DNA from: an uncultured Synergistia bacterium
GTDB taxonomy: Bacteria > Synergistota > Synergistia > CAYRKT01
Reading direction: 5' to 3'
Length of the DNA stretch: 58,766 nt
NCBI GenBank assembly: GCA_964425005.1
Contig: CAYRKT010000002.1
Coordinates: forward strand, 1 to 58,766
The position numbers and the translations under genes are program-made. A model generated the notes under the pieces. It was given only the letters and a program-made list of their open reading frames with translations, was not told where the DNA came from and made no database searches. This document shows, in pieces, positions 113 through 56,344 of this stretch (the first letter of the stretch is position 1; each line of letters opens with the position of its first letter).

Positions 113-1396
113 CTAGAAGAAATCCCTCAATATCGACAAAACGAAGTCCTTTAACCTGCTCCAGGCGCTGGGCCCACGGTTGGCCTGGACCTGCCTCCTC
201 GGGCTGGAACCCAAGCCACCGCCCCCCAAGACCAGGGCCTCCGGTACCTCGACTGAGGCCTTGAGAAGGCCAACCGCCGAGGAGTACACGGGCTGCATGA
301 GGATGTCGGAAAGCCCCCCGACGCCCACGGGGTAGCCGACCCGCACGGAGACCCCTAACAGCTCCGAGGCGAACTCGTCCACGTAGGGCAGCATCGCACA
401 CCCGCCTGTGACCACGACCCCACCCGGGAGCATGTCCACGCCGGACTTGGATATCTCCTCGGAGACCATGCCCATTATCTCCTCCAGCCTGAAGCTCACG
501 ATCTCGGAGAGCTCCCTCCTCGTCACCACCCTGCTCTTCCTGCTCCCGGGCATGGATATCTCTATCTCCGCGTCCTCGTCGACGAAGTCCTGATGGGCCA
601 CCGCCCACCTCACCTTGAGCTCCTCCGCCGAGGGCAGCGGAACCCGCAGCACACAGGCTATGTCGTTGGTGATGTGATCCCCCCCCAGCGGGACCAGGGA
701 CACATACCTCAGGGTGCCCTGATGAAAGACGGCCACCCCCGTGGTGCCAGCCCCCACGTCCACCACGGCCGTCCCCAGGTACCTCTCCTGGTGCCCCAAA
801 ACGGCGTAGGCCGAGGCCACCGGTTTGAGCAGAAAACCCTCCACCGATAGCCCTGCCCCTTCCACCGCCGATATGACGTTCTTGACGCTGGAGGCCAAAG
901 CGGTGATGACCTGGACCTCCACCTCGAGCCTCACGGCGCTCATCCCCAGCGGGTTGTCTATGCCGCCCTGTCCGTCCACCAGGAACTCCTTGGGCAGCAC
1001 GTGCACCAGGAACCTGTCCGTGGGTATGGGAACGCTGCCGGCCACCTCCACCACGCGCTTCACGTCGTCCTGCGTCACCCTCCTGGCGTCCTTGCCCAGG
1101 GAGATCATGCCCCTGTTGAAGACGCAGCCCACGTCCAGGGCGGAGGAGGTGAGCAAGACCCTGTCGAAGGAGCAGTTGCTCATCCTCCTGGCCTCCTCGC
1201 AGGCCTGACGCACGCAGTTGGTGGCCTCCTCCATGTTCACTATGACACCCTTCTTTATACCCCTAGAGGGAACCGAGCCAACGCCCACCACCTGGGGGGT
1301 GGAACCTATCCCCATCTCGGCCACTACGACGCACACCTTGTTGGTCCCCAGATCCACAGCTACCAAAAGCTCCTCAGCGCCCTTGCCGCGGGGCAT
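113..1396 (-). CDS. ftsA: Cell division protein FtsA
   Basis: 427 aa; VDLGTNKV, VDVGAGTT, GGDHITNDI, VVVTGG actin-fold motifs; dcw position; SD GGGGAG. Confidence 0.97.
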   Translation of the reverse strand: MPRGKGAEELLVAVDLGTNKVCVVVAEMGIGSTPQVVGVGSVPSRGIKKGVIVNMEEATNCVRQACEEARRMSNCSFDRVLLTSSALDVGCVFNRGMISLGKDARRVTQDDVKRVVEVAGSVPIPTDRFLVHVLPKEFLVDGQGGIDNPLGMSAVRLEVEVQVITALASSVKNVISAVEGAGLSVEGFLLKPVASAYAVLGHQERYLGTAVVDVGAGTTGVAVFHQGTLRYVSLVPLGGDHITNDIACVLRVPLPSAEELKVRWAVAHQDFVDEDAEIEISMPGSRKSRVVTRRELSEIVSFRLEEIMGMVSEEISKSGVDMLPGGVVVTGGCAMLPYVDEFASELLGVSVRVGYPVGVGGLSDILMQPVYSSAVGLLKASVEVPEALVLGGGGLGSSPRRQVQANRGPSAWSRLKDFVLSILRDFF

Positions 1397-1426
1397 CCGC
1401 TTCTCCCCCTTCTAGAGCTAAAGGCT

Positions 1427-2191
1427 TCAGCGACCCCTTCTCCTCACCACCACCACGCCCTCGGCGGAGAAATCCACCCTCTCCAGGTCTCCCCTGGCCA
1501 CCGAGGGGGTCTTGAGGAAGGCCCTCAGCACGTCCCCAGCGGAAGAGGCCACCTGATCCGCCGTGAACTGCAGAACGGGCCCACCCTCCACCTCCAGAGC
1601 GACCAAGCCCAACCTCTCGTCCATGGACACGACCTTTACCTCGCCCAGCCCTAGCTCGGACGCGATCCCCACCAGCTCCACGAGGCCCACCCAGAATCGA
1701 CCTCCCAGGAGCCAGGGCCCTCCGCCATCCCTCAGCGCGTCCCCGAAACCCCTGAGCTCGACCAGCCCCTTAGCCCTGTGGGGCGAGTCCTCCCAGGAGA
1801 AACCCTCGCGGTCTACCAACAGCACCCTGTCCCCGCTGGCGACCCAGAAGGCCGGAGAGCGCCACTCCACCCTCACCTCCAGAGCCCTCCAGCCCACCAC
1901 AGCGGAAGCGTCCCTGATGGGGTACCTGGCCCTCAAACCCTCGCACAGCTTAGCCCTGTCGACCAGGAAGAAGTAATCCCTCTCCAGATCCGAAAGAAGA
2001 GTCCATATCATGCCCTCGTCCAACGCCTCAAGGCCCCCAGGGGGTCCCACCGAGACCAGCCTTACCTCCTCCAGCGAGAAGGGCAGGGCCACGTTCACCG
2101 CGTACCATACGGCCCCTCCAGCGGCGGAGAAGATGAGAAACGCAAGGGCTATCAGCGCCAGTTTCGCTCCAACACCATCTCCCTCGCGCAA
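1427..2191 (-). CDS. ftsQ: Cell division protein FtsQ/DivIB-like (TM + POTRA + beta domain)
   Basis: N-terminal TM segment, YPIRDASAVVGWRALEVRVE POTRA-like stretch, VDREG; between murB and ftsA. Confidence 0.7.
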   Translation of the reverse strand: MREGDGVGAKLALIALAFLIFSAAGGAVWYAVNVALPFSLEEVRLVSVGPPGGLEALDEGMIWTLLSDLERDYFFLVDRAKLCEGLRARYPIRDASAVVGWRALEVRVEWRSPAFWVASGDRVLLVDREGFSWEDSPHRAKGLVELRGFGDALRDGGGPWLLGGRFWVGLVELVGIASELGLGEVKVVSMDERLGLVALEVEGGPVLQFTADQVASSAGDVLRAFLKTPSVARGDLERVDFSAEGVVVVRRRGR

Positions 2192-3108
2192 CGCCTCCTC
2201 ACCGTCTCCAGCTCGCCACCCCTGACCTCGATCTCCAGCTCGAGCTCCACGCCGAAGGCCTCCCTGACCCTCTCCCTCACCAACCTTATGAGGGCCAGGA
2301 CGTCGCTGGCCCTGGCGCTGCCCAGGTTGACTATGAAGTTAGCGTGGTTGGGGGAGACCATGGCGTCCCCTATCCTCACGCCCTTGCAGCCGCTCATCTC
2401 TATCAGCCTACCAGCGAAAGCACCGGGCGGGTTCTTGAACACACAGCCAGCGCTGGGGAAGTGATAGGGTTGATGTTTTCGCCTCTCCCAGAAGTAGCGG
2501 AGCTTCTCCTCTATCACCTCGGAGCTGGAGGGCTGAAGCGACAACCCCACCCTCCATATGAACCAGCCCTTGTCCTGGAACGAGGAGGTCCTGTAGCCGA
2601 AGGACAGCTCCTCCCTCTCCAGCCTGATCAACCCGCCGTCCTCGTCCAGGACGTCCACGAAGGAGACCACGTCCCCCAGGGAGTGGGTCTTAGCGCCGGC
2701 GTTTATCCAAACTCCGCCCCCTATCGAGCCCGGTATCCCTATGGCGAACTCCATCCCGGATAGCCTGAGCCTCTTGGACAGCTCTATGACGTCGGAGAGC
2801 GCTACGCCTGCCTCCGCCTCCACCACGTGGGGTCCGGATAGCTTCACCTCCGACATCTTGCCTCCCACCTTCACCACAACCCCAGGGAAGCCTTCGTCCA
2901 GTATGAGGATGTTGGTCCCCCTGCCGAGGAACAGCAAGGGGAGGTCCTCGGCCCTGCAGAACCTGAGGACCTCCCTCACGTCCTCCACCCCGTCGGGGAC
3001 CACCAAGGCGTCGGCCTTCCCTCCGACGCCTATGGAAGTGTGAGGGGCCAGCTCTTCGTCGAGCAAGACCTTCCCTCTCACCAACCTGGAAAGGATAGAG
3101 AGATCCAT
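2152..3108 (-). CDS. murB: UDP-N-acetylenolpyruvoylglucosamine reductase
   Basis: HTSIGVGG, GRGTNIL, GIPGSIGG, SAGCVFKNP, HANFIVN, LELEI motifs. Confidence 0.97.
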   Translation of the reverse strand: MDLSILSRLVRGKVLLDEELAPHTSIGVGGKADALVVPDGVEDVREVLRFCRAEDLPLLFLGRGTNILILDEGFPGVVVKVGGKMSEVKLSGPHVVEAEAGVALSDVIELSKRLRLSGMEFAIGIPGSIGGGVWINAGAKTHSLGDVVSFVDVLDEDGGLIRLEREELSFGYRTSSFQDKGWFIWRVGLSLQPSSSEVIEEKLRYFWERRKHQPYHFPSAGCVFKNPPGAFAGRLIEMSGCKGVRIGDAMVSPNHANFIVNLGSARASDVLALIRLVRERVREAFGVELELEIEVRGGELETVRRRCAREMVLERNWR

Positions 3109-3110
3109 GC

Positions 3111-4547
3111 CTATACCTCCTTAAGCCGACACCAGTCCTCGAAAACCCTGCGAAGCAAAACGTTGACGTCCCCCGCCCCCAGCGACACCACCAGGTCGCC
3201 CGGCATCAGGAGACCAGTAACCCCTCCAGTGTCGCAGTCAACCCCATCTAAAAGTATAATATCCCCTGCCCCTTTCCTACCATATAGGACGTCGAGGAAA
3301 AGCTCCGTCTTTGAGCCGAAGTCCTCAGGCCTCGCCTCGGAGGCGGAGAAGACGGGCAACACGAAGAGGAGGTCTGCTCCCTCCGCCAGGACCTCAGCGA
3401 ACTCAGCGGCGAACCGGGCGAAGCGGCTGAACCTGTGGGGTTGAAAGAGGACCACCAACCTCCTCCCGGGCCAGACCGACCTGGCCGTGGCCAAAGTCCT
3501 CCTGATCTCCGTGGGGTGATGGGCGTAGTCGTCCACGAAGACCACACCCCCAGCCTCGCCCACCACGGTCAGCCTCCTCTTGGCCCCGCGAAAGCCCTCG
3601 AGGGAGCCCAGCGCGCTCGACAGAGGAAGACCCATCGCCGCGACCACAGCCATCGCCGCCAGGGCGTTGAGGACGTTGTGCTCCCCGGGCACTCCGAGCC
3701 TCACCTCCCCCACGGGCGAACCGTCCGCGAGCAGGGTGAAGAGGGCGCTCCTGCCCTCCTGCCTGATCCCCACCGCTCCCAGCCTAGCGCGAGATCCCAG
3801 GGCGTAGTCCAAGAGCGCGAGGTCGGACCTGGCGCGGGAGACCTCCCCCGCGAGCCTGGAGAGCAGCGGATCGTCCCCCCAGTAGACCAAAGCCCCTCCG
3901 CGTTTGGAGTTCATGACGTAGCTCAAGAAGACCTCGTAGATCTGTCCCACGTCGCGGTAGACGTCGGCGTGATCCAGCTCCAGGTTGGTCAAGACGGAGA
4001 TGTAAGGCGAGTATTCGGCCATCTGACGGTCGCTCTCGTCGACCTCGCACACCAGGAGATCGCTGTCCCCCAGCAGCACGTTGGCGCCCCAGCTGGGCAC
4101 CTCTCCTCCCACCAGAGCCGTCAGGTCGAATCCCAGCCCCTTGAGGGCGAACGCGACCATGGAGGTGGTGGTGGTCTTGCCGTGGGTCCCGGAGACCCCT
4201 ATGGACCTCATAGCGTTGAAGACGCGCCCCAGGAAGGAGGACCTGCTCTCGACCGAAAGACCCATCCTGATGGCTGCGACCAGCTCCTCGTTGGACCTGT
4301 CGACGGCCTTGCTGAAGACCACCCTATCGCACCTCTCCAGCACCAGATGCTCGGGGGAGTGCCCCCTGTAGACCCTCACACCCCTCCTCCTCACCGCATC
4401 GGCGTAGCCGTCCTCCACGTCGACGTCGCAGCCGCTCACCTCGAATCCCCAACCCTTCAGGAGAAGGGCGAGCGCGCTCACCCCCGCACCACCCACCCCC
4501 ATCAGGTGATAGTTACCCTCGAAAGACCGAAAGAGCTCAGACCCCAC
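3111..4547 (-). CDS. murC: UDP-N-acetylmuramate--L-alanine ligase
   Basis: HLMGVGGAGVS, GTHGKTTT, EVDESD, DDYAHHPTE, FQPHR. Confidence 0.97.
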   Translation of the reverse strand: MGSELFRSFEGNYHLMGVGGAGVSALALLLKGWGFEVSGCDVDVEDGYADAVRRRGVRVYRGHSPEHLVLERCDRVVFSKAVDRSNEELVAAIRMGLSVESRSSFLGRVFNAMRSIGVSGTHGKTTTTSMVAFALKGLGFDLTALVGGEVPSWGANVLLGDSDLLVCEVDESDRQMAEYSPYISVLTNLELDHADVYRDVGQIYEVFLSYVMNSKRGGALVYWGDDPLLSRLAGEVSRARSDLALLDYALGSRARLGAVGIRQEGRSALFTLLADGSPVGEVRLGVPGEHNVLNALAAMAVVAAMGLPLSSALGSLEGFRGAKRRLTVVGEAGGVVFVDDYAHHPTEIRRTLATARSVWPGRRLVVLFQPHRFSRFARFAAEFAEVLAEGADLLFVLPVFSASEARPEDFGSKTELFLDVLYGRKGAGDIILLDGVDCDTGGVTGLLMPGDLVVSLGAGDVNVLLRRVFEDWCRLKEV

Positions 4548-5622
4548 CTGAAGCGCACCCCCAAACTATCTTCGCCGCCCTCGAAGCCGCATCGGGCACC
4601 ACCAGGGAGTAGGCCCTAAGGCCCATCTCCCGCCTGAGCCCAGGATCCAACATGTCCTTCAGGAGCGAGAGAGCCCTGTCGAAGGTGGAAGGATCCCCCT
4701 CGCGGAGGACCTCCGCCCCCCCGGCCCTCTTGACCATCAGGGCGTTCTCCAGCTGATGCCCGCCGGCGGATCCCTCCCACGGGATCAAGACCGAGGGAAG
4801 CGCGAAGGAGCAGATCTCCGCCAGGGCGCCAGCGCCAGCCCTGCTCAGCACCAGGTCTGAGGCGCAATAGAAGTCGCTCATCTCCTCCAGGAACCCCATG
4901 CACACCACGTTCCCGGGAAGCCCTCGAAGCCTCTCCTCCGGATAAGAGCCCGCCAACAGGAAGGCGACGTCCGAGAGCTCCTTCGCCAGCGAGGAGGCGA
5001 GATCCAGCAGGTAGAGGGAGCCCAGGCTGCCTCCCAGCACCCCCACGCAGAGGCGATACCCCGAAAGGCCAAGCCTCTCCTTCGTCCGAAGCTTCCCCTC
5101 CTCGTCCTCCCTCCTCATCCTCCTGATCGGCATGCCGGAGAGGACGAACTTGGGCCCCCTGTATATGGAGAGGGATTCTCGCCAGGAGAGCAACACCAGG
5201 TGGGCCAGCCTGGAGGAGAGGGAGTTGGAAAGCCCCATCCGCAGGTTCTGCTCGTGGACCAGGCATGGTACCCCCAGGGCCCTGGAGGCCACAGCGAAGG
5301 GGAACCCTATGTAGCCTCCCGTGGTGAAGACCAGATGAGGCCTGTAGCCTCGAAGGACCTCAAGGGCCTCGGCCAGGGACTTGAGGTTCCTCCACGCAGA
5401 TCGAAGGACCTCCCAGGACAACTCCCTCGGGATCCCCCTGGAGCCCACCACCTCGGGCTCTATACCCCTGGCCCTGTAGATGGAGAGCTCCAGCTCCCTG
5501 CCGCTGCAGACGAAGAGGGAGTCGAATTCTCCAAACAGATCCCGCATGGCCTCGAAGACCGCCAGGGCCGGAAGGACGTGGCCGCCCGTTCCGCCTGCCG
5601 CGAAGAGGAAGCGCCTCCTCAC
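4537..5622 (-). CDS. murG: Undecaprenyldiphospho-muramoylpentapeptide beta-N-acetylglucosaminyltransferase
   Basis: GGTGGH, HEQN, GGSLG, RAGA, HQLENA. True start is GTG 5622 (GTGA overlap with ftsW stop, SD GGAGGT); track ORF to 6138 is over-extended. Confidence 0.95.
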   Translation of the reverse strand: MRRRFLFAAGGTGGHVLPALAVFEAMRDLFGEFDSLFVCSGRELELSIYRARGIEPEVVGSRGIPRELSWEVLRSAWRNLKSLAEALEVLRGYRPHLVFTTGGYIGFPFAVASRALGVPCLVHEQNLRMGLSNSLSSRLAHLVLLSWRESLSIYRGPKFVLSGMPIRRMRREDEEGKLRTKERLGLSGYRLCVGVLGGSLGSLYLLDLASSLAKELSDVAFLLAGSYPEERLRGLPGNVVCMGFLEEMSDFYCASDLVLSRAGAGALAEICSFALPSVLIPWEGSAGGHQLENALMVKRAGGAEVLREGDPSTFDRALSLLKDMLDPGLRREMGLRAYSLVVPDAASRAAKIVWGCASGGV

Positions 5623-6770
5623 GGCAGGCCACCTCCCGCTGGGCGATCGCCCGCGCCGAGGGTGGAAAGCCTGAGCAAGAGCCCGACCTTGGCGAAGGAG
5701 GTGACCATGGAGCTCCCGCCGTAGCTCAGGAAGGGCAGGGGTAACCCCGTGAGGGGGAAGAGGGCCGTGACCCCTCCCAGGTTTATCAGCGTCTGAAACA
5801 CAAGCGACACCACCAATCCCGCCCCCAGCAAAAAGGCGAAGCGATCCCTCTGCCTTAAGACCACCAGAGAGGCCCTGACGAAGAGCACGAAGTAGAGGAA
5901 CAGGACGAAGGAGACCGCCAGAAGCCCCATCTCCTCGCCCAAGACCGCCAGGATGAAGTCCGTGTGAGCCGCAGGGAGGTAGTAGAACTTCTGCTTGCTC
6001 TGTCCCAGTCCCACCCCCCAAAGGCCGCCCATGGCGTACGCCAGAAGCCCCTGGACCAGCTGGAACCCGCTGCCGCCGGGGTCGCTCCATGGGTCCCAGA
6101 AGGACATGAAGCGCCTGAACCTGTAGGGCTTCGCCCATATCACCAGGCCGAGCAACAGGGGCGAGAGGGCTATCAGGGACAGGCTACCCAGCAGGTTCCC
6201 TCCAGCCAGGACGTAGAGGGAGAAGGCGGTGGCCCCCAGCCAAACCGCACCACCCAGGTCGGGCTGCAGGAAGACCAGCAGGACAGGAAGGGAGATGGCC
6301 TTGACGGAGGCCCAAAAGCCCTCCCAGGAGGCGAGCTCCCCCTCCGACCTGTCGGAGAAGTACCTGGCGAAGTGCACCGAGAGCAAGAGGGACATGACGT
6401 CTAAGACCTGGAAGCTTCCGCCCACCAAGGGTATCCTTATCCATCGATAGGAACCCCCGTGGTAGAGCCCAAGCCCCGGGACGAAGACGGACAAGCCCAG
6501 GAGGAGGGCCAGGACGCCACAGGCCCTGGCTACCCTTCTCCAGACCTCCATCTCCAGGGAGTAGAAGAAGAACATGGCGAGAAAGCCAACCAGGACCGAC
6601 CTCACCTGCTTGCGAAACAGGGGTTGACCCCCCTCCCCGGGGCTGGCGGAAAGACCGTAGAGCACCACCAGCCCCATCAGGCACAGCGCCAAGACGCAGG
6701 CCCACATCAAGAAGTCGGGCCTGATGTGTCGGAGAGCGCCAGTTTCTACGGCCCTCTCCTCAAAGTCCAT
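5619..6770 (-). CDS. ftsW: SEDS peptidoglycan polymerase FtsW
   Basis: Multi-TM; RWI, QPDLG, GFQL, AHTDFI, GEEMG, PLTGLPLPFLSYGGSS. Confidence 0.96.
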   Translation of the reverse strand: MDFEERAVETGALRHIRPDFLMWACVLALCLMGLVVLYGLSASPGEGGQPLFRKQVRSVLVGFLAMFFFYSLEMEVWRRVARACGVLALLLGLSVFVPGLGLYHGGSYRWIRIPLVGGSFQVLDVMSLLLSVHFARYFSDRSEGELASWEGFWASVKAISLPVLLVFLQPDLGGAVWLGATAFSLYVLAGGNLLGSLSLIALSPLLLGLVIWAKPYRFRRFMSFWDPWSDPGGSGFQLVQGLLAYAMGGLWGVGLGQSKQKFYYLPAAHTDFILAVLGEEMGLLAVSFVLFLYFVLFVRASLVVLRQRDRFAFLLGAGLVVSLVFQTLINLGGVTALFPLTGLPLPFLSYGGSSMVTSFAKVGLLLRLSTLGAGDRPAGGGLP

Positions 6771-8136
6771 GGGCCTCTATCAACCTCCTCACGGCCTCCC
6801 TGAAGGCTTGTCCTCTATGGGCGTAGTTCTTGAACATGTCGAAGCTCGCGCAGGCGGGCGAGAGGAGCACCACGTCGCCGGGTTCGGCCATGGAGAAGGC
6901 CAGCTCCACCGCCTCGTCCATGTCCCTCGCGAGACGAAAGGACGAAAACCCCTCCCTCAGAAGCGCCTCGGAGATGGGCCTGGCCTCCTCCCCTATCAGG
7001 ATGGCCCCCCTGGCCCACCTCTTGACCGCCGAGGCCAGGGGGGAGTAGTCCTCCCCCTTGCCCCTGCCCCCCAGTATCACCACCTTACGCCCCTCGATGC
7101 TCCTCAGGGCCGCCACGGCGGCCGCCACGTTGGTCCCCTTGGAGTCGTCTACGAACCTCACGCCCCTGAAGGTGGAGACCTCCTCCGTCCTGTGGGGAAG
7201 AGGTTTGAACGACCTGAGCGATTCCCCGAAGCCCCCGGGGACGCCCTCCGCCAAGGCCACGGCCGCGCAGGCGTACGAGGCGTTCTCCAGGTTGTGCAGC
7301 CCCAGGAGGGGCAACTCCCCCCTGCGAAAGAGCTCCAAGACCTCGCCTTCCCTCCGAAGCAAGACCTCCTCGTCCGCCCAGAGGATCGAACCCTCCGCGT
7401 CGAGGCTGACTCCTCCCTCGGATCTCAACAGCACCGCCCTTCTGGCCCTGACGGAGGAGCCCACCCTGTGGGCCAGCTCGACGGGGTAAAGGGCCCACTC
7501 GCGGGAGATGCGGATCAGCTTGAGCTTGGCCTCCAGGTAGGCCTCGAAGGAGCCGTGCCAGTCCAGGTGATCCGGCTCCACGTTGGTGAGCACGCCCACG
7601 TCGGGCGCGAAGCTATCCGCCCAGTGGAGCTGATAGCTGCTCACCTCCCACACCACGAAGTCGTAATCGCCGGCGCAGGCGTTGATGGCCGGGTTGCCGA
7701 AGTTCCCCCCCACGAAGACCTCGCCCATGGGTTTCAAAAGATGCCCTATCAGGGCGGTGGTGGTGCTCTTGCCGTTGGTGCCCGTCACGCAGTAAAGCCT
7801 TCGGACGGGGGGGAGCAGGCGCCAAGCCAGCTCCAGCTCCCCCACCAGGGGCACCCCTCTCCTCTCGGCCTCCCTCACGGCAGCGCTCGAGGGGGAGACG
7901 CTGGAGCTCAAAACCATGAGGTCGCAGGAGAAGGCCCTCTCCGAGTGCCCACCCACCTCGAAGGCTACCCCGGCCTCCTCCAGGGAGGCCAGGTTAGCCC
8001 CATCGACCGAGGCGCTCGCCTCGCTCACGAGGACCTCGAGCCCAAGCCTGAGCTTCAGGAACAGGGCCGACGCCGTCCCGCTCTTGCCGGCCCCTACGAC
8101 GGTCACCCTCCTGACGCCTTCGAGGAAATCCCTCAT
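6760..8136 (-). CDS. murD: UDP-N-acetylmuramoyl-L-alanine--D-glutamate ligase
   Basis: GAGKSG, GTNGKSTT, EVSSYQL, DHLDWH, DDSKGTN, LSPACASFD. Start ATG 8136 overlaps the mraY stop. Confidence 0.96.
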   Translation of the reverse strand: MRDFLEGVRRVTVVGAGKSGTASALFLKLRLGLEVLVSEASASVDGANLASLEEAGVAFEVGGHSERAFSCDLMVLSSSVSPSSAAVREAERRGVPLVGELELAWRLLPPVRRLYCVTGTNGKSTTTALIGHLLKPMGEVFVGGNFGNPAINACAGDYDFVVWEVSSYQLHWADSFAPDVGVLTNVEPDHLDWHGSFEAYLEAKLKLIRISREWALYPVELAHRVGSSVRARRAVLLRSEGGVSLDAEGSILWADEEVLLRREGEVLELFRRGELPLLGLHNLENASYACAAVALAEGVPGGFGESLRSFKPLPHRTEEVSTFRGVRFVDDSKGTNVAAAVAALRSIEGRKVVILGGRGKGEDYSPLASAVKRWARGAILIGEEARPISEALLREGFSSFRLARDMDEAVELAFSMAEPGDVVLLSPACASFDMFKNYAHRGQAFREAVRRLIEAHGL

Positions 8137-9128
8137 CGCGCAACCCCCCAGAGGAGGAGCATGCCCACCAGGCAGGACGCCGAATGGCAGAGGAGAAAGC
8201 CCAACACTATGGAGGGCTCGGAGTGACCCTTGAGCTCGAAGTGGTGGTGGAAGGGGCTCATCGAGAAAACTCTGCGGGAGAAGAGGGAAAGGGAGAGCCT
8301 CTGGACGAGCACAGAGGCCGTGTCCCAGACGAAGAGACCGCCCAGGAACAGAAGGAGCCACTCCGAGGAGAGGAGGAAGGAAGATATGCCCAGGACCCCT
8401 CCCAGGAAATGGGACCCCACGTCGCCCATGAAGAGCATGGCCGGATGCCAGTTGAAGACCAGGAAGGCCACCAGGGAGCCCATCACGACCCAGAGGTAAG
8501 GGAGGAGCTCGGATAGCTCCACCTTCCCGCCCCCGCCGAGGAGGAGGAGCGAAGCGAGGCTCAGCAGAGCACCTCCCGCCGCCAAGCCGTCCAGTCCGTC
8601 GGCTATGTTCACGGCGTTGACCGTCCCGACCAGCACGAAAGTCGAGGCGATCAGGCCCAGGACCCCAGCGAGCCCGTGCCCCCCGACCTCCAGGCCCCAG
8701 GAGGGGAGGAGGAACACGCGTTCCTTAAGCCCAGCTCTGACGGCGAACACGGTCAAGGCCAGGGCCACCAGGCACTGCAGGGCGAACTTGCTCCTCTCCG
8801 TCAAACCCTCGCTGGTACCGCTCCTCCACTTCAACAGGTCGTCGAGGAAGCCCACGGCGGAGAAAGCCGAGGTTCCCAGCACCAGGAGGGAGGACCTCGG
8901 CCCCAGGCCCTCGCGGAGGAGACCGAGGACGGCGAAGGCGAGGAGAGCGAGGACGAAGGCCACCCCACCCGCGGTGGGGGTACCGACCTTCTCCCTCAGG
9001 TGCCTCTCGGGGCCGTACCTCTTCAGGTTCTGGTATAGGTATAGCCTGCGCAAAACCAAGATCAGCGCCCAGGAGATGGAGGCGCTGATCGCGAAGGACG
9101 CCCAGAAGTGCAACAGGAAGCCCCTCAT
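8133..9128 (-). CDS. mraY: Phospho-N-acetylmuramoyl-pentapeptide transferase
   Basis: KVGTPTAGG, GFLDD, NAVNIADGLDGLA, FMGDVGS, PFHHHFE. Start ATG 9128 overlaps the murF stop. Confidence 0.96.
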   Translation of the reverse strand: MRGFLLHFWASFAISASISWALILVLRRLYLYQNLKRYGPERHLREKVGTPTAGGVAFVLALLAFAVLGLLREGLGPRSSLLVLGTSAFSAVGFLDDLLKWRSGTSEGLTERSKFALQCLVALALTVFAVRAGLKERVFLLPSWGLEVGGHGLAGVLGLIASTFVLVGTVNAVNIADGLDGLAAGGALLSLASLLLLGGGGKVELSELLPYLWVVMGSLVAFLVFNWHPAMLFMGDVGSHFLGGVLGISSFLLSSEWLLLFLGGLFVWDTASVLVQRLSLSLFSRRVFSMSPFHHHFELKGHSEPSIVLGFLLCHSASCLVGMLLLWGVAR

Positions 9129-10534
9129 TCCACCCCCAGCCTCCCCAACAACTCCTCGAACCTGCAAGACCTGGAGGCCTTGAAGGCCACCGCGCTCCCC
9201 GGAGGGAAGCGCTTCAACAGGTCAGATGGGACCCGATCCCCGTCCGGGTAGAGATCCAGGAAGGCCCCCCTCGGTACCCCCGAGGCGGAAAAGCCCTCCG
9301 AGAACGCCTCTCCCTCGGGGCCCACGAAGACCGCGCCGTCCACCACAAGCCCGGCCTCGAACCCCAGCTCCCTGTGGAAAACCTCGCGCCCTTCCCCCAG
9401 CTCCTTCATGCTGCCGAAGACGACGAAGACCGAAAGCCCCCTATCGTCCTTCAGCTCCCTCAGGAAGGCGAGCAACGCCCTGGCGGACTCGGGGTTGGCG
9501 TTGTAGAAGTCCTCGATCAGCAGCAGGTCGCCTGCCTTCCTGGGCCTTACGCGCATCTCGGGTGGTTCTGCGCCCTCGAGGGAGGCCAAGACCTCCTCGA
9601 AGTCGAAGCCCAGGTTCACCATCGCCGAGGCCGCCAGGGCCACGTTGATGGCGTTGTGGGCGCCCACCAACCGGGTTGATATCCTCCCCCTCCTCCCCGA
9701 GGCCACCTCCTCGAGATCCACCCACAGGCACAGGTCGTCCCCCATGCCCGTCCCGAGAACCCTCACGTGGTCGCCCCAGGCTCCCACGGAGCAGCGCCTG
9801 AAACTCCCATGGGGAACCCCCCGGGCCAACCTCTCGTCGTCGCCGTTGAAGGAAACCCAACCGCCCTCCCTCAAACCCTCCAGGATCTCGAGCTTCGCGC
9901 GAAGGACCCCATCCAGGTCGCCCAGGGCCTCCAGGTGAGCTGGCGCGACCTTGACCAGAACAGCTCCGTCGAGGGGGAAGAGCTCGACCATCCTCCTGAT
10001 CTCCCCGAAACCGCTGGTGCCGAGCTCCAGCACCAGGACGTCCAGCGGAGCTGGAGCGGAGAGCACGGCCAGGGAGATCCCCACCTCCGTGTTGTAGCTG
10101 CGAGGGGTGTGGAAGGCCCTGCACAGGCGCGAAAGCCCCTCGCCCAGGACCTTTTTGGTGGTGGACTTGCCGACGCTTCCGGTGATCCCCACCACCCCGA
10201 AGGGCTTGAGAGAGCCCAGGAGGTATCGCCTGGCGGCCCATATCAGGGACTTGAGGACGTCGGGCACCCTGATCAAGAGAACCTCTGAGAGCCCCTCGGG
10301 CTCGACGGGGAGGCGAAAGCCCTCCTGGACAACCAGGACCTTCGCCCCCCTACTCGCCGCGTCCCCCACGAACAGGTGTCCGTCGCTCCTGCTGCCCCGA
10401 AGGGCGAAGAAACAGGAGTTCGGCCCAGCCATGCGGCTGTCCACCACGAAGGAGGATATCTCCACGTCGAGGAAGGGGCCCTCGACCCTGGAGGGCGCAA
10501 GGAGCTCGATCAGCTCAGACGACCTCAAGGCCAA
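9125..10534 (-). CDS. murF: UDP-N-acetylmuramoyl-tripeptide--D-Ala-D-Ala ligase
   Basis: DSR, DGH, GITGSVGKSTTK, YNTEVG, DFYNANPES, MKELG, KASR. Confidence 0.96.
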   Translation of the reverse strand: MALRSSELIELLAPSRVEGPFLDVEISSFVVDSRMAGPNSCFFALRGSRSDGHLFVGDAASRGAKVLVVQEGFRLPVEPEGLSEVLLIRVPDVLKSLIWAARRYLLGSLKPFGVVGITGSVGKSTTKKVLGEGLSRLCRAFHTPRSYNTEVGISLAVLSAPAPLDVLVLELGTSGFGEIRRMVELFPLDGAVLVKVAPAHLEALGDLDGVLRAKLEILEGLREGGWVSFNGDDERLARGVPHGSFRRCSVGAWGDHVRVLGTGMGDDLCLWVDLEEVASGRRGRISTRLVGAHNAINVALAASAMVNLGFDFEEVLASLEGAEPPEMRVRPRKAGDLLLIEDFYNANPESARALLAFLRELKDDRGLSVFVVFGSMKELGEGREVFHRELGFEAGLVVDGAVFVGPEGEAFSEGFSASGVPRGAFLDLYPDGDRVPSDLLKRFPPGSAVAFKASRSCRFEELLGRLGVE

Positions 10535-12026
10535 GTCCCTCCTCCTCCAGGACCTCCCTCAGGGCCCTCTCCTCGTTGTAGGGCAGGTGCTCGTCCCCGA
10601 CTATCATGTAGCTCTCAGGCCCCTTGCCGGCCAGGAGCAGGACGTCCCCATCCCTGCTGAACCTCACGGCCCGCCTGATGGCCTCCTTCCTGTCTATCTC
10701 TATGGCGTACCTGCCCTGTCCGCCACCCGCCACGACCCCCGCCTCTATGTGCCTCGCTATCTCCATGGGGTCGTCGAATCGAGGGTTGTCCATCGTGATC
10801 ACCACGAAGTCGCACCTCTCGGCGGCGAGCTTGCCCATCTCCCAGGCGTTCCTGAGGTACCTGTCGCCGCCGAAGCCGAACAGGGCCACGAGCCTGCCGC
10901 CCTCTCCCATTGCCTCCCTGGCCGCCGATATGAGCTTCTCCAGCGCGTCCGGGGAGTGGGCGTAGTCTATCACAGCCCAGGCACCGTTGGAGAGCCTCCT
11001 CACCTCCACCCTGCCCGGCACCCTCCTGAGCTCCCTTATGCCCCGCAGGGCCTCTTCCACCGAGAAGCCAAGCCCCCTGGCCAGCGCGTAGGCCGTGAGG
11101 GCGTTGTAGACGTTGTACCTACCTATCATGGGGACCAGGAGCTGGCCGGCGAGGCACCCCCCCTCGAACACCTGCGCCCTCGCCCCCCTCATGTCCACTC
11201 CTTCGACGGCCGCGAAGAAATCCGCCGACGGGTCGAGCAGGGAGAGGGAAAAGGAGGGAAGACCGGCCCTCCTGAGCTCCGAAGACAACCTAGAACCCCA
11301 CTCGTCGTCGACGTTGACCACCCTGACGCCCCCGGGAGCAGTGTAGTCGAAGAACAAGGACCTCTTGGCCTGATAGTAGCCCTCCATCGTCCCGTGGAAG
11401 TCCAGGTGTTCGGGCGTCAGGTTGGTGAAGGCGGAGGCCTCGAAGCTCACGTCCACCAACCTGTCCATCTGGAGCCCATGGGAGGAGGCCTCCATGACGA
11501 AGAAGGTGCACCCCCGATCGACGGCCCTCCTCATCCACCCCTGGACCTCCCAGGACTCGGGCGTCGTCCTGTCCGCCTCCACCTCCTCCTCTCCGTCGGA
11601 GTAGACGACCGTGCCCATGAGCCCTACCTTAAAGCCCAACCCCACGAGGATCGACCTGAGCATGAAGGTGGTGGTGGTCTTCCCGTTGGTCCCCGTGATC
11701 CCGACCACCCTCAGGGCCCTGGACGGACGCCCGCACAGGATGGAGCTCACCCTTCCCATGAACCTGCGCGGGTTCGTCACCACCACCTGAGGCACCCCGT
11801 GCTCCAGAGGTCTTTCCACCACAAGGGCGACGGCGCCACGCTCGAGGGCATCATCGGCCAACTCGTGTCCGTCGAACCTGGCCCCCCTCACGCACACGTA
11901 CATGTAACCCCGCCTCACCTGTGAGGTGTGGTTGGTCACCCCGGTCAACTCCACGTCCGCATCCCCTATCAGTTCAAAGCTTTCTCCTTCCTCCCGCAAG
12001 ACCCTCAGGACGTCGAGGAGCTTCAC
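10515..12026 (-). CDS. murE: UDP-N-acetylmuramoyl-dipeptide--diamino acid ligase (DNPR motif, meso-DAP type)
   Basis: GITGTNGKTT, TTPES, MEASSHG, HLDFH, DYAHSPD, GGDR, DNPR, LAGKG. Start GTG 12026 overlaps the ftsI stop. Confidence 0.96.
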   Translation of the reverse strand: MKLLDVLRVLREEGESFELIGDADVELTGVTNHTSQVRRGYMYVCVRGARFDGHELADDALERGAVALVVERPLEHGVPQVVVTNPRRFMGRVSSILCGRPSRALRVVGITGTNGKTTTTFMLRSILVGLGFKVGLMGTVVYSDGEEEVEADRTTPESWEVQGWMRRAVDRGCTFFVMEASSHGLQMDRLVDVSFEASAFTNLTPEHLDFHGTMEGYYQAKRSLFFDYTAPGGVRVVNVDDEWGSRLSSELRRAGLPSFSLSLLDPSADFFAAVEGVDMRGARAQVFEGGCLAGQLLVPMIGRYNVYNALTAYALARGLGFSVEEALRGIRELRRVPGRVEVRRLSNGAWAVIDYAHSPDALEKLISAAREAMGEGGRLVALFGFGGDRYLRNAWEMGKLAAERCDFVVITMDNPRFDDPMEIARHIEAGVVAGGGQGRYAIEIDRKEAIRRAVRFSRDGDVLLLAGKGPESYMIVGDEHLPYNEERALREVLEEEGLGLEVV

Positions 12027-13735
12027 GGCGAGCTCAAACCCCCTTCGAACCTGGCCACCTCTCTGACGACCCTCGAGAAGAGCGGAGCCACGATCTCGCT
12101 GGCCAGCACGATCCCGCCCCTGGGCCTCCCCATCACGAGCAGGAGCAGATGTCTGGGCTCCTCCGCTGGCCAAAACCCGACAAAGGATATCACATATCTA
12201 TCGGTATATCTACCCTCCTCAGCTATCTGCGCCGTGCCCGTCTTCCCGCCCACCTCCAGGCCCTCCACGGCGGCCTTCCGCGCCGTGCCTACCTGCACGA
12301 CCCTCCTGAGCATCCTCCTCAGCTCGGCGGAGACCTCGGGACTTATGACCTGTCTCCTCTCCATGGGCGCTGGCGAGAACCTCTCCTCCCCGAGGACACC
12401 CTCCACCACCCTGGGCCTCACCAGGAAGCCCCCGTTCACCAGGGCGCAGTAAGCAGCGGCTAGCTGAACGGGCGTGACCGCGAACCCATGGCCTATGCCC
12501 ACCAGGGCCCTGGTCGCCCCGAACCACTCCCTGAAGGGCGGAAGCAAGCCCACCTCCTCGCCGGGCAGCTCCACGCCCGTCCTGGACCCGAAGCCGAAGG
12601 CCCTAAGGTACTCGTACACCCACCTGTCCTCAACCCTCAGCCTGGCCTCGATAGCCCCCGCGTTGCACGAATACATCAACACCTCCTCCAGCGAGACCCG
12701 ACCGTGGGAGTGGATGCACCTTATCCTGGTCCCGGCGTACTCGTAGTAGCCAGGGCAGTAGAAGCTCTCCCTCCCGGAGAGCTTGCCCAGCTCAAGGCCT
12801 ATAGCCGCCACCAGCGGCTTCACCGTAGAGCCGGGCTCGTAGACCCGCGATACGGCGTTGTTCCTCCTGTGCTCAGGGGGGAAATCCCACCAGCTGTTGG
12901 GATCGAAGGAGGGATAGCTGGCCATAGCGAGTATCCTGCCGTCGACGGCGCTCATCAGGATCCCCGCCCCCCACTCGGCACCGTTGGAGGAGCAGGCCTC
13001 CGACAGCTCCTTGTCGAGGAAGTGCTGATACCTGAAGTCCAGGGTCAGCTGCAGCCCCCTTCCCCCTAGACCCCCCGCGTCGGGGGGGCTCGCCAGGGCC
13101 CTCCCGACGATCCGGCCCCTCGCGTCCCTGAGGAGCTTGTAGAGGTAAACCCTGGAGGACAGGAACGAGTCCCACTCGAACTCCAGGCCCTCGAGCCCCT
13201 GGTCGTCCAGGCCGCAAAACCCCAGCACATGCGCCCCCACCGGGCCGAAGGGGTAGAAGCGCTTGCGCTCCTCCATCACGTAAAGGCCCCTGACGTCGGC
13301 CGAGAGCACCGCCGAGGCCAGGGACTGATCCACCCTCCTCTTGATCCATACGAACTTCCTCCCCTCCCTCCTGGCCTCGTCGATCGCCCTGAGGGCCTCT
13401 TCCCCGAAGGCGGACCTGAACCACTGAGCGCCCGCCGGGTCGAGCTGGACCTCGCCGGGGACCGCATACACGCTGGGGGATGGGACGCTGGAGGCCACGA
13501 CCAAGCCGTTCCTGTCGAAAATGAAACCCCTGTCGCTCCTCAAGGCCACCCTGCTCCAGTACTGGCCCTTGAGGGCCTCCTCTATCCTGGGGTCAGGTCT
13601 CAGATGCAGGGAGAGGCACCTGAGGAATATCGAGAAGAACAGGAGCCCGCAGAGCGAGAGCAAAACCCCGAAGCGAAACTTGGAGCCCTCGGAGGCCAGG
13701 CCCTCCGCAGAGCCGCCTCCCCAGGGAAGAGGCAC
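12023..13735 (-). CDS. ftsI: Class B penicillin-binding protein FtsI/PBP2b
   Basis: RGFIFDRNG, RFYP, GLEGLE, SxxK (STVK), SxN (SCN), KTG (KTGT); no PASTA domain. Confidence 0.94.
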   Translation of the reverse strand: MPLPWGGGSAEGLASEGSKFRFGVLLSLCGLLFFSIFLRCLSLHLRPDPRIEEALKGQYWSRVALRSDRGFIFDRNGLVVASSVPSPSVYAVPGEVQLDPAGAQWFRSAFGEEALRAIDEARREGRKFVWIKRRVDQSLASAVLSADVRGLYVMEERKRFYPFGPVGAHVLGFCGLDDQGLEGLEFEWDSFLSSRVYLYKLLRDARGRIVGRALASPPDAGGLGGRGLQLTLDFRYQHFLDKELSEACSSNGAEWGAGILMSAVDGRILAMASYPSFDPNSWWDFPPEHRRNNAVSRVYEPGSTVKPLVAAIGLELGKLSGRESFYCPGYYEYAGTRIRCIHSHGRVSLEEVLMYSCNAGAIEARLRVEDRWVYEYLRAFGFGSRTGVELPGEEVGLLPPFREWFGATRALVGIGHGFAVTPVQLAAAYCALVNGGFLVRPRVVEGVLGEERFSPAPMERRQVISPEVSAELRRMLRRVVQVGTARKAAVEGLEVGGKTGTAQIAEEGRYTDRYVISFVGFWPAEEPRHLLLLVMGRPRGGIVLASEIVAPLFSRVVREVARFEGGLSSP

Positions 13736-53059: not shown

Positions 53060-53084
53060 CCTCTCACGAAAGCCGAACAAGCCC

Positions 53085-53337
53085 GGCGATGACCGAGGGA
53101 GGGTCTTTCCCAGAAGCCCAACAGAGAGGGGGCTCCACCGGCTGAGAGGGCCCCTGGGGTGGGGGTTAGATCCAAAGCCCTCGCGAGCCTCGGCCGAAAG
53201 GGTTCTCCCGGAGTAGGCCGCGGGGGGCTCCCGTTAAAGGGCCGACGAGGGGAAGAGGGGGGACGCAAGGGTTTCTTCTCTTCCACTAGGGTGGTACCGC
53301 GGGCCGAAAGCTCGTCCCTAGAGGGACGAGCTTTTTT
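53085..53337 (+). ncRNA. T-box riboswitch (transcriptional), probable Lys (AAA) specifier
   Basis: K-turn GGC-GAU-GA/GA-GCC, AG bulge CAGAGAG, GCUGAG distal loop, stem II with GAA/AGUA S-turn, CCGUUA box, stem III, AGGGUGGUACCGCG (53288-53301), terminator. Confidence 0.92.
53310..53337 (+). terminator. T-box attenuator terminator
   Basis: GCTCGTCCC-TAGA-GGGACGAGC-TTTTTT; its 5' strand is shared with the antiterminator. Confidence 0.9.
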
Positions 53338-53378
53338 GTTTAGGTCGACCCAGCGCGAGGAGGTGTTCTGAGGTGGAG

Positions 53379-53555
53379 ATGACGAGGATCGAGGCGATGT
53401 GCGAGGTGTGTGGAGGGGAACTGGAGATCGGGTCCGGCGTGGAGCTGGGCGAGATAGTGGTATGCTCCGACTGCGGGACGGAGCTGGAGGTGGTCTCGTT
53501 GGATCCTGTGGTCCTGGAGAGGGCCCCCGAGGTCCAGGAGGACTGGGGGGAGTAA
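53379..53555 (+). CDS. lysW: Amino-group carrier protein LysW
   Basis: CEVC...CSDC zinc ribbon, GEIV.C..CG.ELEV, acidic, C-terminal EDWGE. Confidence 0.96.
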   Translation: MTRIEAMCEVCGGELEIGSGVELGEIVVCSDCGTELEVVSLDPVVLERAPEVQEDWGE

Positions 53556-53561: not shown

Positions 53562-54410
53562 ATGAGGCCCTCGCTGGTGGTCCTAAACGACGTCTTCTCC
53601 TTCGAGACCAGGCTGCTCCTGGAGGCAGCCGACTCGGTCGGCGTGAGCTGCAGGACCGTGGAGGTCTCCTCGGGCCTCTGGTTCGACCAGCTGGACCCCG
53701 CGCTTCCCTGTTGGAACCTCATCTCGTCGCCGGTGGCCAGGGCTGCGGTGTCCTCCTCCCTTCGCGGGCGAGGGCTTAAGCCCTTGAACCTCGCGTTAGC
53801 CGAAGGGAGCGCCGTCGACGTGGCCTCTACCCTGCACGACCTAAGCCTCGAGGGCCTCACCAGCGAGGTCTTCCTGCTCTTCCGCGAGCCCCAGGTCAAG
53901 GAGCTCATCGCCCAGGGGAGGTTGAGGTACCCCTTCTGGATAAGAGGGAGCAGGCGAGGGAGGGGGGACATCAGGACCCTGGTCAGGAGCGAGGCCGCCC
54001 TGGAGGCGGTGCTGGAGCACCGGGAACACCTGGTCGACGAGCCCTTCGTGGTCCAGGTCCACCCCGAGGCGGACGCCATGGCCAGGCTGACCATCATAGG
54101 GAGCAGGAGGTTCTGGAGCCAGGGGGCGATATCCCCCAGCGGCAGACATGCTCTAGCGCCGTGCGACGAGACGGAAGAGCTCTCCGACATCGCAGCGAGG
54201 TTGTGCCGATACCTGCGGGACAGGTTCGGGACCCCACTCTGGGCCCAGTTCGACCTGCTCATCTCGCGAGGAGGAAGGGGATTTTGGGTCTTCGACCTCT
54301 CGGATCTGCCCGAGCTGATGCCCCTAAAGGATAGGAGGGCTGAGCTGGTGGAGGCTCTGGCCTCGGTCGTCGAGGAGGTGATGGCCGATGGAGGAGGGCA
54401 AACCCTCTAA
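53562..54410 (+). CDS. Highly diverged LysX/RimK-like ATP-grasp protein (probable pseudo-enzyme)
   Basis: Position right after lysW; E.RLLLEAA..G, EAVLEHRE, FDL..S..G, PEL resemble LysX; the DK, KP..GSWG, NT.RG and EVN motifs are absent. Confidence 0.7.
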   Translation: MRPSLVVLNDVFSFETRLLLEAADSVGVSCRTVEVSSGLWFDQLDPALPCWNLISSPVARAAVSSSLRGRGLKPLNLALAEGSAVDVASTLHDLSLEGLTSEVFLLFREPQVKELIAQGRLRYPFWIRGSRRGRGDIRTLVRSEAALEAVLEHREHLVDEPFVVQVHPEADAMARLTIIGSRRFWSQGAISPSGRHALAPCDETEELSDIAARLCRYLRDRFGTPLWAQFDLLISRGGRGFWVFDLSDLPELMPLKDRRAELVEALASVVEEVMADGGGQTL

Positions 54411-54551: not shown

Positions 54552-55295
54552 TTGAACGAGGTGACCTTGGAGGGCGAGATAGTCGAGATAGGACCGGATC
54601 GCATAAGGGTCAGGGGCGTGGACATAGAGGAGCTCATAGAGGGCTGGAGCTACCCGGAGGTCTTTTGGTTTCTGCTCACCGGCAGGAGGCTGAGCTCGAG
54701 GGAGAGGAGGATGCTCGAGGCCATACTGGTGGCCATGTGCGACCACGGCCCAACGCCTCCCAGCACCCAGGCGGCCAGGCTCGTGGCCTCCACCGGCTCC
54801 CCCATGCACGCGGCCCTGGCGGCAGGGCTCTTGGGCTTCGGAGATCACCACGCCGGGGCCATAGAGCTGGCCATGAGGGTGCTCCAGGAGGCGGTGCGAT
54901 CTGCGGAGCTCGGCAGAGACGAGCTCAAAGGGACGGCGGAGAGGCTCGTGGAGGACTTCCTGGACAGAGGGGAAAGGGTGCCGGGCTTCGGACACAGGTA
55001 CCACAGGAGGGATCCCAGACCCCCTGCCCTGGTCAGGTTGGCCGAGAGGCTCTCCATGGTGGGACCCCACCTGAGGCTCGCCCTGGAGATGGAGGAGGTC
55101 CTCCTGTCCAGGAAGGGCATAAGGATGAACATCGACGGGGCGAGCGGGGCGATCCTGAGCGACATGGGGCTCTCGTGGCGCGTAGGCAGAGGGGTCTTCG
55201 CCCTGGGAAGGATGTCGGGCCTGATAGCGGAGGTTATGGTGGAGATATCGTGCTACAAGCCGTTCAGGAAGTTCCACGAGATAAAGGCCAGTTGA
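54552..55295 (+). CDS. Citrate synthase-fold protein (short citryl-CoA lyase / archaeal citrate synthase-like)
   Basis: 247 aa; DHGPTPPSTQAARL, GDHHAGAIE, PGFGH, DPR, MNIDG (His-His-Asp triad intact); TTG after SD GGAGGTG. Confidence 0.9.
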   Translation: MNEVTLEGEIVEIGPDRIRVRGVDIEELIEGWSYPEVFWFLLTGRRLSSRERRMLEAILVAMCDHGPTPPSTQAARLVASTGSPMHAALAAGLLGFGDHHAGAIELAMRVLQEAVRSAELGRDELKGTAERLVEDFLDRGERVPGFGHRYHRRDPRPPALVRLAERLSMVGPHLRLALEMEEVLLSRKGIRMNIDGASGAILSDMGLSWRVGRGVFALGRMSGLIAEVMVEISCYKPFRKFHEIKAS

Positions 55296-55315
55296 ACGAG
55301 GAGGTGCCAGGGAAC

Positions 55316-56344
55316 TTGAAGGTGGCTGTATTCGGAGCGTCCGGGTTCGTGGGAGGAGAGCTCTTGAGGCTCATAGCCCTCCATCCGCAGATGGAGCTCT
55401 CGGCGGCGTCCTCCAACACCTTCGCCGGGGAGATGGTCTGGACGAGGCACCCGCACCTCAGGCCCGTATACCCCTCCTTGAAGTTCTGCGCGCCCGAGGA
55501 GGCCATTGGAGCGGACTTCGACCTGGCCTTCCTGGCCCTGGAGCACGGGAGGTCCGCCGAGGTCGCGGGGAAGATCCACGACAGCGGCAGGCTCGTGGTG
55601 GATCTGAGCGCAGACCTCAGGCTCAAGGACCCCGAGGCCTACAGGAGGTGGTACGGCAGGAATCACCCAAGGCCGGACCTCCTCTCCAGGGCCGTCTACG
55701 GGCTTCCAGAGCTGCACCGCGAGGAGCTCAAGGGGGCGACTTTGGCCTCCGGGGTGGGCTGCAACGCCACCGCCGTGAACCTGGCGCTCAAGCCCCTCAA
55801 GGGCCTCCTTCGGGAGGTCGTGGCCGACGTGAGGGCTGGCTCTTCCGAGGGAGGAGCTCGTCCCAGCGAGGGCTCCCATCACCCCATAAGGAGCAGGGCC
55901 CTCAGGCTCTACTCCGTGGGGAAGCACAGGCACATGGCCGAGGTGTGCCAGGAGATGGAGCTCCCAGAGGAGGCTATATCCTTCTCCGTCACGGCGGTGG
56001 AGCTGGTGAGGGGGGTTCAGGCGGTGGTCAGGTGCAGGCTGAGCGAGCGCCTGACCGAGAAGGAGCTGTGGGGGCTCTTCAGGAACGCCTACAAGGGAAG
56101 CCCCTTCGTCTCCCTGTGCCCCGCCAACCCACCCCACCTACGACTGCCGGACCCCAGGTGGGTCACGGGCAGCAACCACGCCATGATAGGCTTCGTCCAG
56201 GAGGGGGAAGATCGGGTGGTGGTGGTCTCGGTGCTGGACAACCTCGTCAAGGGCTCCGCCGGGACGGCCGTGGCCTGCGCCAACCTGATGGTGGGCCTGC
56301 CGGAGGAGACCGGCCTGAACCAAAGCCCCATATTCCCTGTATGA
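55316..56344 (+). CDS. lysY: [LysW]-aminoadipyl/glutamyl-phosphate reductase (LysY/ArgC family)
   Basis: GASGFVGGELLRL, DLSADLR, AVYGLPE, GCNAT, GSSEGG, DNLVKGSAG; TTG 55316 after SD GAGGAGGTG. Confidence 0.92.
   Translation: MKVAVFGASGFVGGELLRLIALHPQMELSAASSNTFAGEMVWTRHPHLRPVYPSLKFCAPEEAIGADFDLAFLALEHGRSAEVAGKIHDSGRLVVDLSADLRLKDPEAYRRWYGRNHPRPDLLSRAVYGLPELHREELKGATLASGVGCNATAVNLALKPLKGLLREVVADVRAGSSEGGARPSEGSHHPIRSRALRLYSVGKHRHMAEVCQEMELPEEAISFSVTAVELVRGVQAVVRCRLSERLTEKELWGLFRNAYKGSPFVSLCPANPPHLRLPDPRWVTGSNHAMIGFVQEGEDRVVVVSVLDNLVKGSAGTAVACANLMVGLPEETGLNQSPIFPV

Follow-up and report, generated by a model that had tools for sequence, protein, structure and literature searches.

In the stretch of DNA analyzed here (the window: 58,766 nucleotides, positions 1 to 58,766 of contig CAYRKT010000002.1, assembly GCA_964425005.1, from an uncultured Synergistia bacterium), a murE gene whose product has the pocket of a meso-diaminopimelate (meso-DAP) ligase was found together with an operon of the LysW lysine pathway. 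In the textbook account, the DAP pathway serves both lysine and the cell wall or, as in Thermus and Deinococcus, aminoadipate/LysW lysine is paired with ornithine in the wall. The original prediction, made from the letters of the window, offered three ways to read the combination: a DAP route for the wall beside a LysW route, a MurE that adds another diamino acid despite its motif, or a LysW operon that makes ornithine/arginine and not lysine. The explanation that we consider probable is that this MurE belongs to a lineage in which the supplies for the wall and for lysine are uncoupled, with LysW leading to lysine and a DAP-like residue going to peptidoglycan only; the LysW operon and the DAP-type MurE are thus not in conflict. 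The source genome is a hot-spring Synergistota metagenome-assembled genome of 1.78 Mb with 62.6% G+C, in 119 contigs and 95% complete.

The murE gene and the codons of its motifs are placed as follows.

10515..12026, minus strand: murE, an open frame of 503 amino acids; 429 bits to NF001126 and 421 bits to TIGR01085, with DAP-adding MurEs as the best Protein Data Bank (PDB) matches
11673..11693, minus strand: ATP P-loop GTNGKTT (residues 112-118), from the translation
10860..10871, minus strand: GGDR (residues 386-389), its Arg aligned to E. coli Arg389
10779..10790, minus strand: DNPR (residues 413-416), from translation and alignment, forming the pocket that takes DAP's distal carboxylate and amine (role from PMC3829189)
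10614..10628, minus strand: GKGPE (residues 467-471), aligned to E. coli G464...E468

MurE motifs were compared after MAFFT alignment to the E. coli K-12 enzyme, whose 495-residue numbering equals that of the structure paper plus one. The GGDR and DNPR motifs of the original prediction were confirmed by translation and stand in the same columns as the E. coli motifs; because these are conserved columns of a full-length family match, chance occurrence of the motifs is not an issue. GGDR and GKGPE of the window MurE align with GGDR and GKGHE of E. coli, and all six E. coli DAP-contact positions, i.e. Arg389, Asp413, Asn414, Arg416, Gly464 and Glu468, are kept. For the list of contacts we took part from PMC3829189 and the rest from what we take to be the assignments of the 1E8C structure paper. 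The protein scored over the cut-offs of the 2,6-diaminopimelate ligase equivalog NF001126 (429 vs 373 bits) and of TIGR01085 (421 vs 257 bits), and fell short on the L-lysine ligase model NF010628 (278 vs 536 bits). When residues 380-475 were compared with PDB entries, the DAP-adding enzymes (M. tuberculosis, a mycobacterial entry related to it, and E. coli) gave 74-49 bits, whereas the lysine-adding enzymes of S. aureus and T. maritima gave 46 and 42 bits. A full-length match, the P-loop, GGDR, DNPR, GKG.E and the position between ftsI and murF are all shared with the EC 6.3.2.13 enzymes of E. coli (1E8C) and M. tuberculosis (2WTZ/2XJA), although the window MurE scores against those chains are moderate (240-270 bits). 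The frame also holds EASSHG and NLTPEHLDFHG stretches and shows no sign of decay. Judged by its sequence, the gene appears to encode a working, vertically inherited Synergistia MurE with a meso-DAP-type pocket.

The Asn and Arg of DNPR hold the free carboxylate of meso-DAP, and S. aureus has Ala in place of this Arg (PMC3829189). Whether the motif is informative in organisms that use LysW was approached by taking the window LysZ as the query, selecting named genomes with a related kinase and searching these for MurE. The enzymes of Thermus composti and of a Thermaceae metagenome-assembled genome have AGER at the GGDR position and EDHR and EDSR, respectively, at the DNPR position; those of a Caldilineaceae and a Dormibacteria metagenome-assembled genome lack GGDR and read EDPR, while Entotheonella, Acetomicrobium and metagenome-assembled genomes of Phycisphaerales and Bacillota have GG(D/E)R and DNPR. 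The four EDxR enzymes grouped by maximum likelihood in one separate clade (support 100/99), and the window MurE was nested in the Synergistia clade (support 96/92). The Thermus signature of an ornithine-type enzyme (EDxR, AGER and membership in that clade) was not found in the window MurE. Since Thermus-type MurEs lack DNPR and the EDxR enzymes form a clade of their own, DNPR discriminates, and a LysW/ornithine lineage is not the source of the window MurE. The concern raised in the original prediction, that ornithine-adding MurEs might commonly carry DNPR, thus did not hold for these relatives by LysZ (Thermus, Thermaceae, Caldilineaceae and Dormibacteria all read EDxR), and its use of DNPR as an indicator of meso-DAP stood, with all six contacts kept.

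Thermus walls contain ornithine. The wall of Deinococcus also contains ornithine, according to bioRxiv 10.1101/2021.12.28.474397. The premise of an ornithine wall in LysW users is in line with the MurE motif of the Thermus type, though not a general rule. The source genome resembles the Thermus lysine system in having LysW, LysY, LysZ (45% identical to Thermus LysZ) and LysJ and in having no LysA. It differs in the DNPR-type MurE, which stands apart from the AGER...EDHR enzyme of Thermus in another clade, and in an operon with a citrate-synthase-fold gene and an unrecognizable LysX but no HMGL-family homocitrate synthase.

The presence of the LysW operon in the same window as murE was borne out, with lysW followed by lysY, lysZ and lysJ. 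Its features are listed here.

53080..53322, plus strand: T-box leader before lysW (RF00230, full model, 65.7 bits, E 4e-14, under the gathering score of 93)
53373..53555, plus strand: lysW, amino-group carrier protein with a zinc ribbon and C-terminal EDWGE (TIGR01206, 74 bits vs 53)
53562..54410, plus strand: gene at the place of LysX, the ATP-grasp ligase loading aminoadipate; no match to any NCBIfam family at E 0.001
54552..55295, plus strand: citryl-CoA-lyase/citrate-synthase-fold gene inside the LysW operon (NF004866, 289 bits)
55304..56344, plus strand: lysY (TIGR01850, 336 bits)
about 56353-57168, plus strand: lysZ (NF010659 "[LysW]-aminoadipate kinase", 297 bits vs a cut-off of 223)
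57153-58325, plus strand: lysJ, ArgD/LysJ family, under the LysJ-specific cut-offs
58322-58765, plus strand: open frame of 148 codons cut by the contig end, probably lysK by position only

The T-box leader was missed at the Rfam gathering threshold and recovered only at an E-value threshold, so standard annotation would miss it. When its specifier loop was read manually, with two inserted G-C pairs taken to extend the basal helix, the last unpaired loop bases were AAA followed by G; the specifier is thus probably AAA, a lysine codon, followed by the usual purine. This disfavors, as the main role of the operon, the option that it makes ornithine/arginine and not lysine, and we infer that it yields lysine. 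The sole ArgB and ArgC homologues of the genome are LysZ and LysY, and a third amino-acid-kinase match is a carbamate kinase. LysW systems are able to make both lysine and ornithine (PMC12998189), and a side role of the operon in ornithine synthesis is possible because these two proteins are the only ArgB and ArgC homologues. A search of the genome for an HMGL-family homocitrate synthase found only LeuA, HMG-CoA lyase and OadA. The carbamate kinase gene, arcC (443 bits; contig C1:134449-135324, minus strand; locus L017:1435-2388), was recorded in a genome with ArgB/ArgC only as LysZ/LysY, and arginine is probably degraded there and not made by the classical route.

The pairing of LysW with a DAP-type MurE characterizes much of the Synergistota, cultured species included. 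We surveyed 121 Synergistota genomes, draft or sampled, among which the source genome is the sole representative of its own family; absences here and below rest on profile and BLAST searches and, because kin are not independent, the counts are to be read as lineages rather than separate events. LysW was present in 52 of these genomes, within a few kb of the kinase where positions were compared, and a LysZ-like kinase (E <= 1e-50) in 58, while a DapF match was found in 108 and a LysA over the cut-off in 91. In 25 of the 121, LysA was absent or represented only by a 155-172-bit paralogue that elsewhere also occurs beside a true LysA. LysW was found in 18 of these 25 genomes, compared with 34 of the 96 LysA-positive ones, and DapF was kept in 14 of the 18 that had LysW and no LysA (not in G000, G008, G010 and G039). 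The MurE motif, read in 40 sequences from 36 genomes, was DNPR in 34, DNAR in five (four members of a second class and G009) and DNPK in one (a tandem paralogue); every LysW-positive genome whose motif was read (21/21) had DNPR (17) or DNAR (4).

Thermanaerovibrio velox Z-9701T (G013) has a DNPR MurE, DapF, a LysZ-like kinase, a LysW that scores 1.6 bits short of the cut-off, and no LysA. The same pattern was found in its congener G004, which we take to be T. acidaminovorans and which is assembled in one contig of 1,848,474 bp. Like the source genome, T. velox and its congeners combine a DNPR MurE with LysW and a LysZ-like kinase that lie no more than about 3-4 kb apart, have a DapB-like paralogue, and lack LysA and a canonical dihydrodipicolinate synthase (DHDPS). 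Unlike it, they keep DapF and lack the aldolase-type DapA homologue described below, and their MurE is only 43-45% identical to that of the window.

Several side observations were made on MurE, LysW and DapF in this survey. In the second Synergistota class (G002, G005, G008 and G010; loci L036-L039), MurE has DNAR and GGNR, DapB matches were found in none of the four genomes, and LysZ (about 290 bits) and LysW (83-91 bits) are the closest to those of the window. Tandem murE pairs were seen in G051 (L054/L055) and G094 (L048/L049), and also in G021, G025, G032, G067 and G095. In the two genomes whose second copy was read, G051 and G094, GGDR is replaced by GASGES, and in G051 DNPR is also replaced by DNPK; this second tandem MurE may, by its sequence, have an altered substrate. 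Some DapF-family matches lie inside frames of ~1,350-1,410 residues (e.g. G112:C41, G118:C30, G073:C1:1039309 and G056:C136) and may be fusion domains and not free DapF. Two tandem full-length dapF genes were found in G022 (C1:1723837-1725503) and G080 (C1:1958150-1959828), loci L149 and L150, where LysA and canonical DHDPS are lacking.

In the uncoupled arrangement that we favor, MurE would add an acid gripped at its distal carboxylate and amine by six residues: Arg from GGDR, Asp, Asn and Arg from DNPR, and Gly and Glu from GKGPE. Lysine for protein would be made on the LysW carrier under a T-box that senses lysine tRNA. LysA would have been lost in the lineage, splitting the two jobs of the usual DAP pathway, and the wall residue would be a DAP-like compound used for peptidoglycan only. 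We infer that the substrate of MurE is meso-DAP. The first option of the original prediction, a DAP route for the wall beside LysW for lysine, fits the phylum pattern best (LysW with DNPR MurE, LysA lost, DapF in 14/18), except that a DAP route was not recognized in the source genome.

This gap in supply is among the points that weigh against the favored reading. Genome-wide family searches gave no match for dapF or lysA, only a 21-bit match for ddh, and no mpl for tripeptide salvage; tblastn of the source genome with the DapF, LysA, canonical DapA and Ddh of relatives returned only noise or a single aldolase gene. This gene, the sole DHDPS-family member of the genome (contig C5:6028-6924, minus strand; locus L001:1474-2370), matched "DapA" at 165 bits against a cut-off of 206. 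Its closest PDB entry is the human 4-hydroxy-2-oxoglutarate aldolase HOGA1 (219 bits vs <=146 for any DHDPS), and it has Ser44, Asn45 and Asn138 where E. coli DapA has Thr44, Thr45 and Arg138. Arg138 of DHDPS binds aspartate semialdehyde, and the canonical set of Thr44, Tyr133, Arg138 and Lys161 was not found in this protein. A DapB-like gene (contig 52, 7944-8741; 125 bits vs a cut-off of 122, PDB matches all DapB) falls in a class of paralogues, 46-53% identical across the phylum, which in G003 is present together with canonical dapB. A "DapL" match reached 447 bits against a cut-off of 593. The same side of the balance holds the long branch of the window MurE (1.26 vs a median of 0.33), the S. 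aureus work in which the motif alone did not fix specificity (PMC3829189), and the state of the source assembly (95% complete, 119 contigs). Finally, wall chemistry has not been published for T. velox, and none was found for other Synergistota in the literature searched.

The contig-5 gene was rejected as DapA, being of the HOGA1 type by its best PDB match and by Ser44/Asn45/Asn138; the Ser-Asn...Asn aldolase paralogue also occurs beside canonical dapA-dapB in G012, G020 and G062. This paralogue is near-universal in the sampled Synergistia, and the gene adjoins a glutamate dehydrogenase gene; the enzyme could have a role in hydroxyproline or glyoxylate metabolism. TIGR03540 was likewise rejected as evidence for DapL, because the E. 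coli, Thermus and Deinococcus controls also matched it, at 1e-90, which makes this score range uninformative. Aspartokinase and Asd are present in the source genome, and synteny of asd in four relatives placed both genes within a thrC-thrB-aspartokinase-asd operon; they are therefore explained by threonine synthesis. Neither dapF nor the DapB-like gene, each followed through eight relatives, revealed a hidden dap operon: the neighbors of dapF were unrelated, and those of the DapB-like gene were not conserved. The search for dapA, dapB, dapL, dapF and lysA that the original prediction had called for thus gave no dapF or lysA, an aldolase-type dapA, a paralogue-class dapB match and a dapL match under the cut-off. 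Recognizable DHDPS, DapF, Ddh, LysA and Mpl are all lacking, and a known DAP route was not found in the source genome. In lacking recognizable DapA, DapF, Ddh and LysA it differs from the hosts of the E. coli enzyme and its M. tuberculosis counterpart, and the supply of substrate may differ too.

A PF00701 gene was also missing from the single-contig Thermanaerovibrio genomes G004 and G013, and the only DHDPS paralogue of G022 and G080, whose assemblies have one or two contigs, is of the aldolase type. The supply gap is therefore not solely an assembly artefact, since these assemblies also lack canonical DHDPS. We consider it likely that dapF is truly absent from the source genome, a rough estimate that follows from its presence in 14 of 18 comparable relatives and an assumed 5-10% chance of a miss. 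In G084 and G102, Ddh is present without canonical DapA, and G084 also has the DapB-like gene; since Ddh occurs in G084 with only aldolase-like and DapB-like genes, this pair might feed tetrahydrodipicolinate.

Three other explanations were weighed against the uncoupled reading. An ordinary DAP supply could have been missed, with dapF (perhaps also DHDPS) lying in the unassembled 5%, or with the aldolase-like, DapB-like and aminotransferase genes being divergent but working forms of DapA, DapB and DapL. The 119 contigs and 95% completeness of the assembly, the DapF of most LysA-less LysW-positive relatives, the hint from G084 and the presence of Asd and aspartokinase argue for this. On balance we regard it as unlikely: the aldolase, which elsewhere occurs together with canonical DapA, has neither Arg138 nor Thr44/45, the single-contig Thermanaerovibrio genomes have no PF00701 gene at all and G022 and G080 only the aldolase type, no piece of dapF, lysA, ddh or canonical dapA came up by tblastn, and the aspartokinase-asd pair of relatives sits in a threonine operon. 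The sample contains no second genome of the family against which the absences could be cross-checked. It is quite unlikely, in our judgment, that the DNPR pocket instead receives a compound other than meso-DAP of the cell's own making, whether an isostere (for example meso-lanthionine, the residue of Fusobacterium), LL-DAP, or DAP taken up from the remains of dead neighbors. Synergistota are fermenters of amino acids and peptides, a point in favor; on the other side, Mpl for tripeptide salvage is absent, and growth of T. velox has been reported with yeast extract serving as the carbon source, while yeast makes no DAP. The failure to find DHDPS, DapF and Ddh is consistent with an outside or alternative source, and, as cited in PMC6721243, F. 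nucleatum has lanthionine in place of DAP in its wall and E. coli dapF mutants incorporate LL-DAP. The resemblance to F. nucleatum (a Gram-negative-type wall with a position-3 DAP isostere that does not come from the DAP pathway) is by analogy only; neither a lanthionine synthase nor a DAP transporter was looked for, and no positive sign of either turned up.

That the DNPR pocket accepts L-lysine or L-ornithine from the LysW operon, with no need for DAP, we regard as quite unlikely. This possibility corresponds to the option of a MurE that adds another diamino acid despite DNPR, which gains from the absence of a recognizable DAP route, from the capacity of LysW systems for both lysine and ornithine, from LysZ and LysY being the sole ArgB and ArgC homologues, from the dependence of S. 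aureus MurE on more than its motif and from the long MurE branch. All six DAP contacts are nevertheless kept, Thermus-type MurEs are EDxR enzymes of another clade, and relatives with the same MurE type retain DapF or Ddh. Moreover, the DNPR enzyme of V. spinosum uses meso-DAP, with LL- and DD-DAP used at <1% of that rate and no activity with lysine or ornithine (PMC3681970), and in S. aureus MurE the A409R substitution showed that Arg at this position hampers the use of lysine, with a Km above 20 mM (PMC3829189).

The window also carries the rest of the dcw cluster around murE. The murE start is a GTG that overlaps the stop of ftsI, and the cluster is complete in the order ftsI, murE, murF, mraY, murD, ftsW, murG, murC, murB, one further open reading frame (ORF) and ftsA, so that murE lies between ftsI and murF, the position expected of a DAP-adding MurE. 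Apart from ftsI, the rows rest on the ORF list and Pfam domains.

12023..13735, minus strand: ftsI (penicillin-binding protein transpeptidase), directly upstream of murE (PF00905, 214 bits)
113..10534, minus strand: remaining dcw cluster, downstream of murE
9125-10534, minus strand: murF
8133-9167, minus strand: mraY
within 6760-8361, minus strand: murD, N-terminus over-extended
5619-6770, minus strand: ftsW
within 4537-6138, minus strand: murG, N-terminus over-extended
3111-4547, minus strand: murC
2152-3108, minus strand: murB
113-1396, minus strand: ftsA

MurE and LysW are each of a known kind; their combination with loss of LysA and no recognizable DHDPS appears to be a variant. Our literature searches found no description of this combination, and nothing relevant on LysW/aminoadipate in Synergistota or on the wall diamino acids of Synergistaceae. 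For annotation, the sub-cut-off "DapA" here is of the hydroxy-oxoglutarate-aldolase type, and sub-cut-off "DapL" matches are uninformative. In the source genome and about two fifths of the sampled Synergistota, LysW stands beside a DAP-type MurE, and loss of LysA usually goes with LysW, so that the lysine and wall functions seem to follow a third pattern, in which they are uncoupled. The DAP-type ligase without a recognizable DHDPS in several complete genomes is a concrete gap. It is possible, though we think it rather less than probable, that in a set of Synergistota lineages, the source genome and cultured Thermanaerovibrio among them, where this ligase occurs without DHDPS and LysA, the wall diamino acid is supplied by an undescribed route (a new DAP pathway, an isostere such as lanthionine, or LysW-derived lysine or ornithine accepted by the DNPR pocket). 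If so, such a route would be new peptidoglycan biochemistry for a whole phylum.

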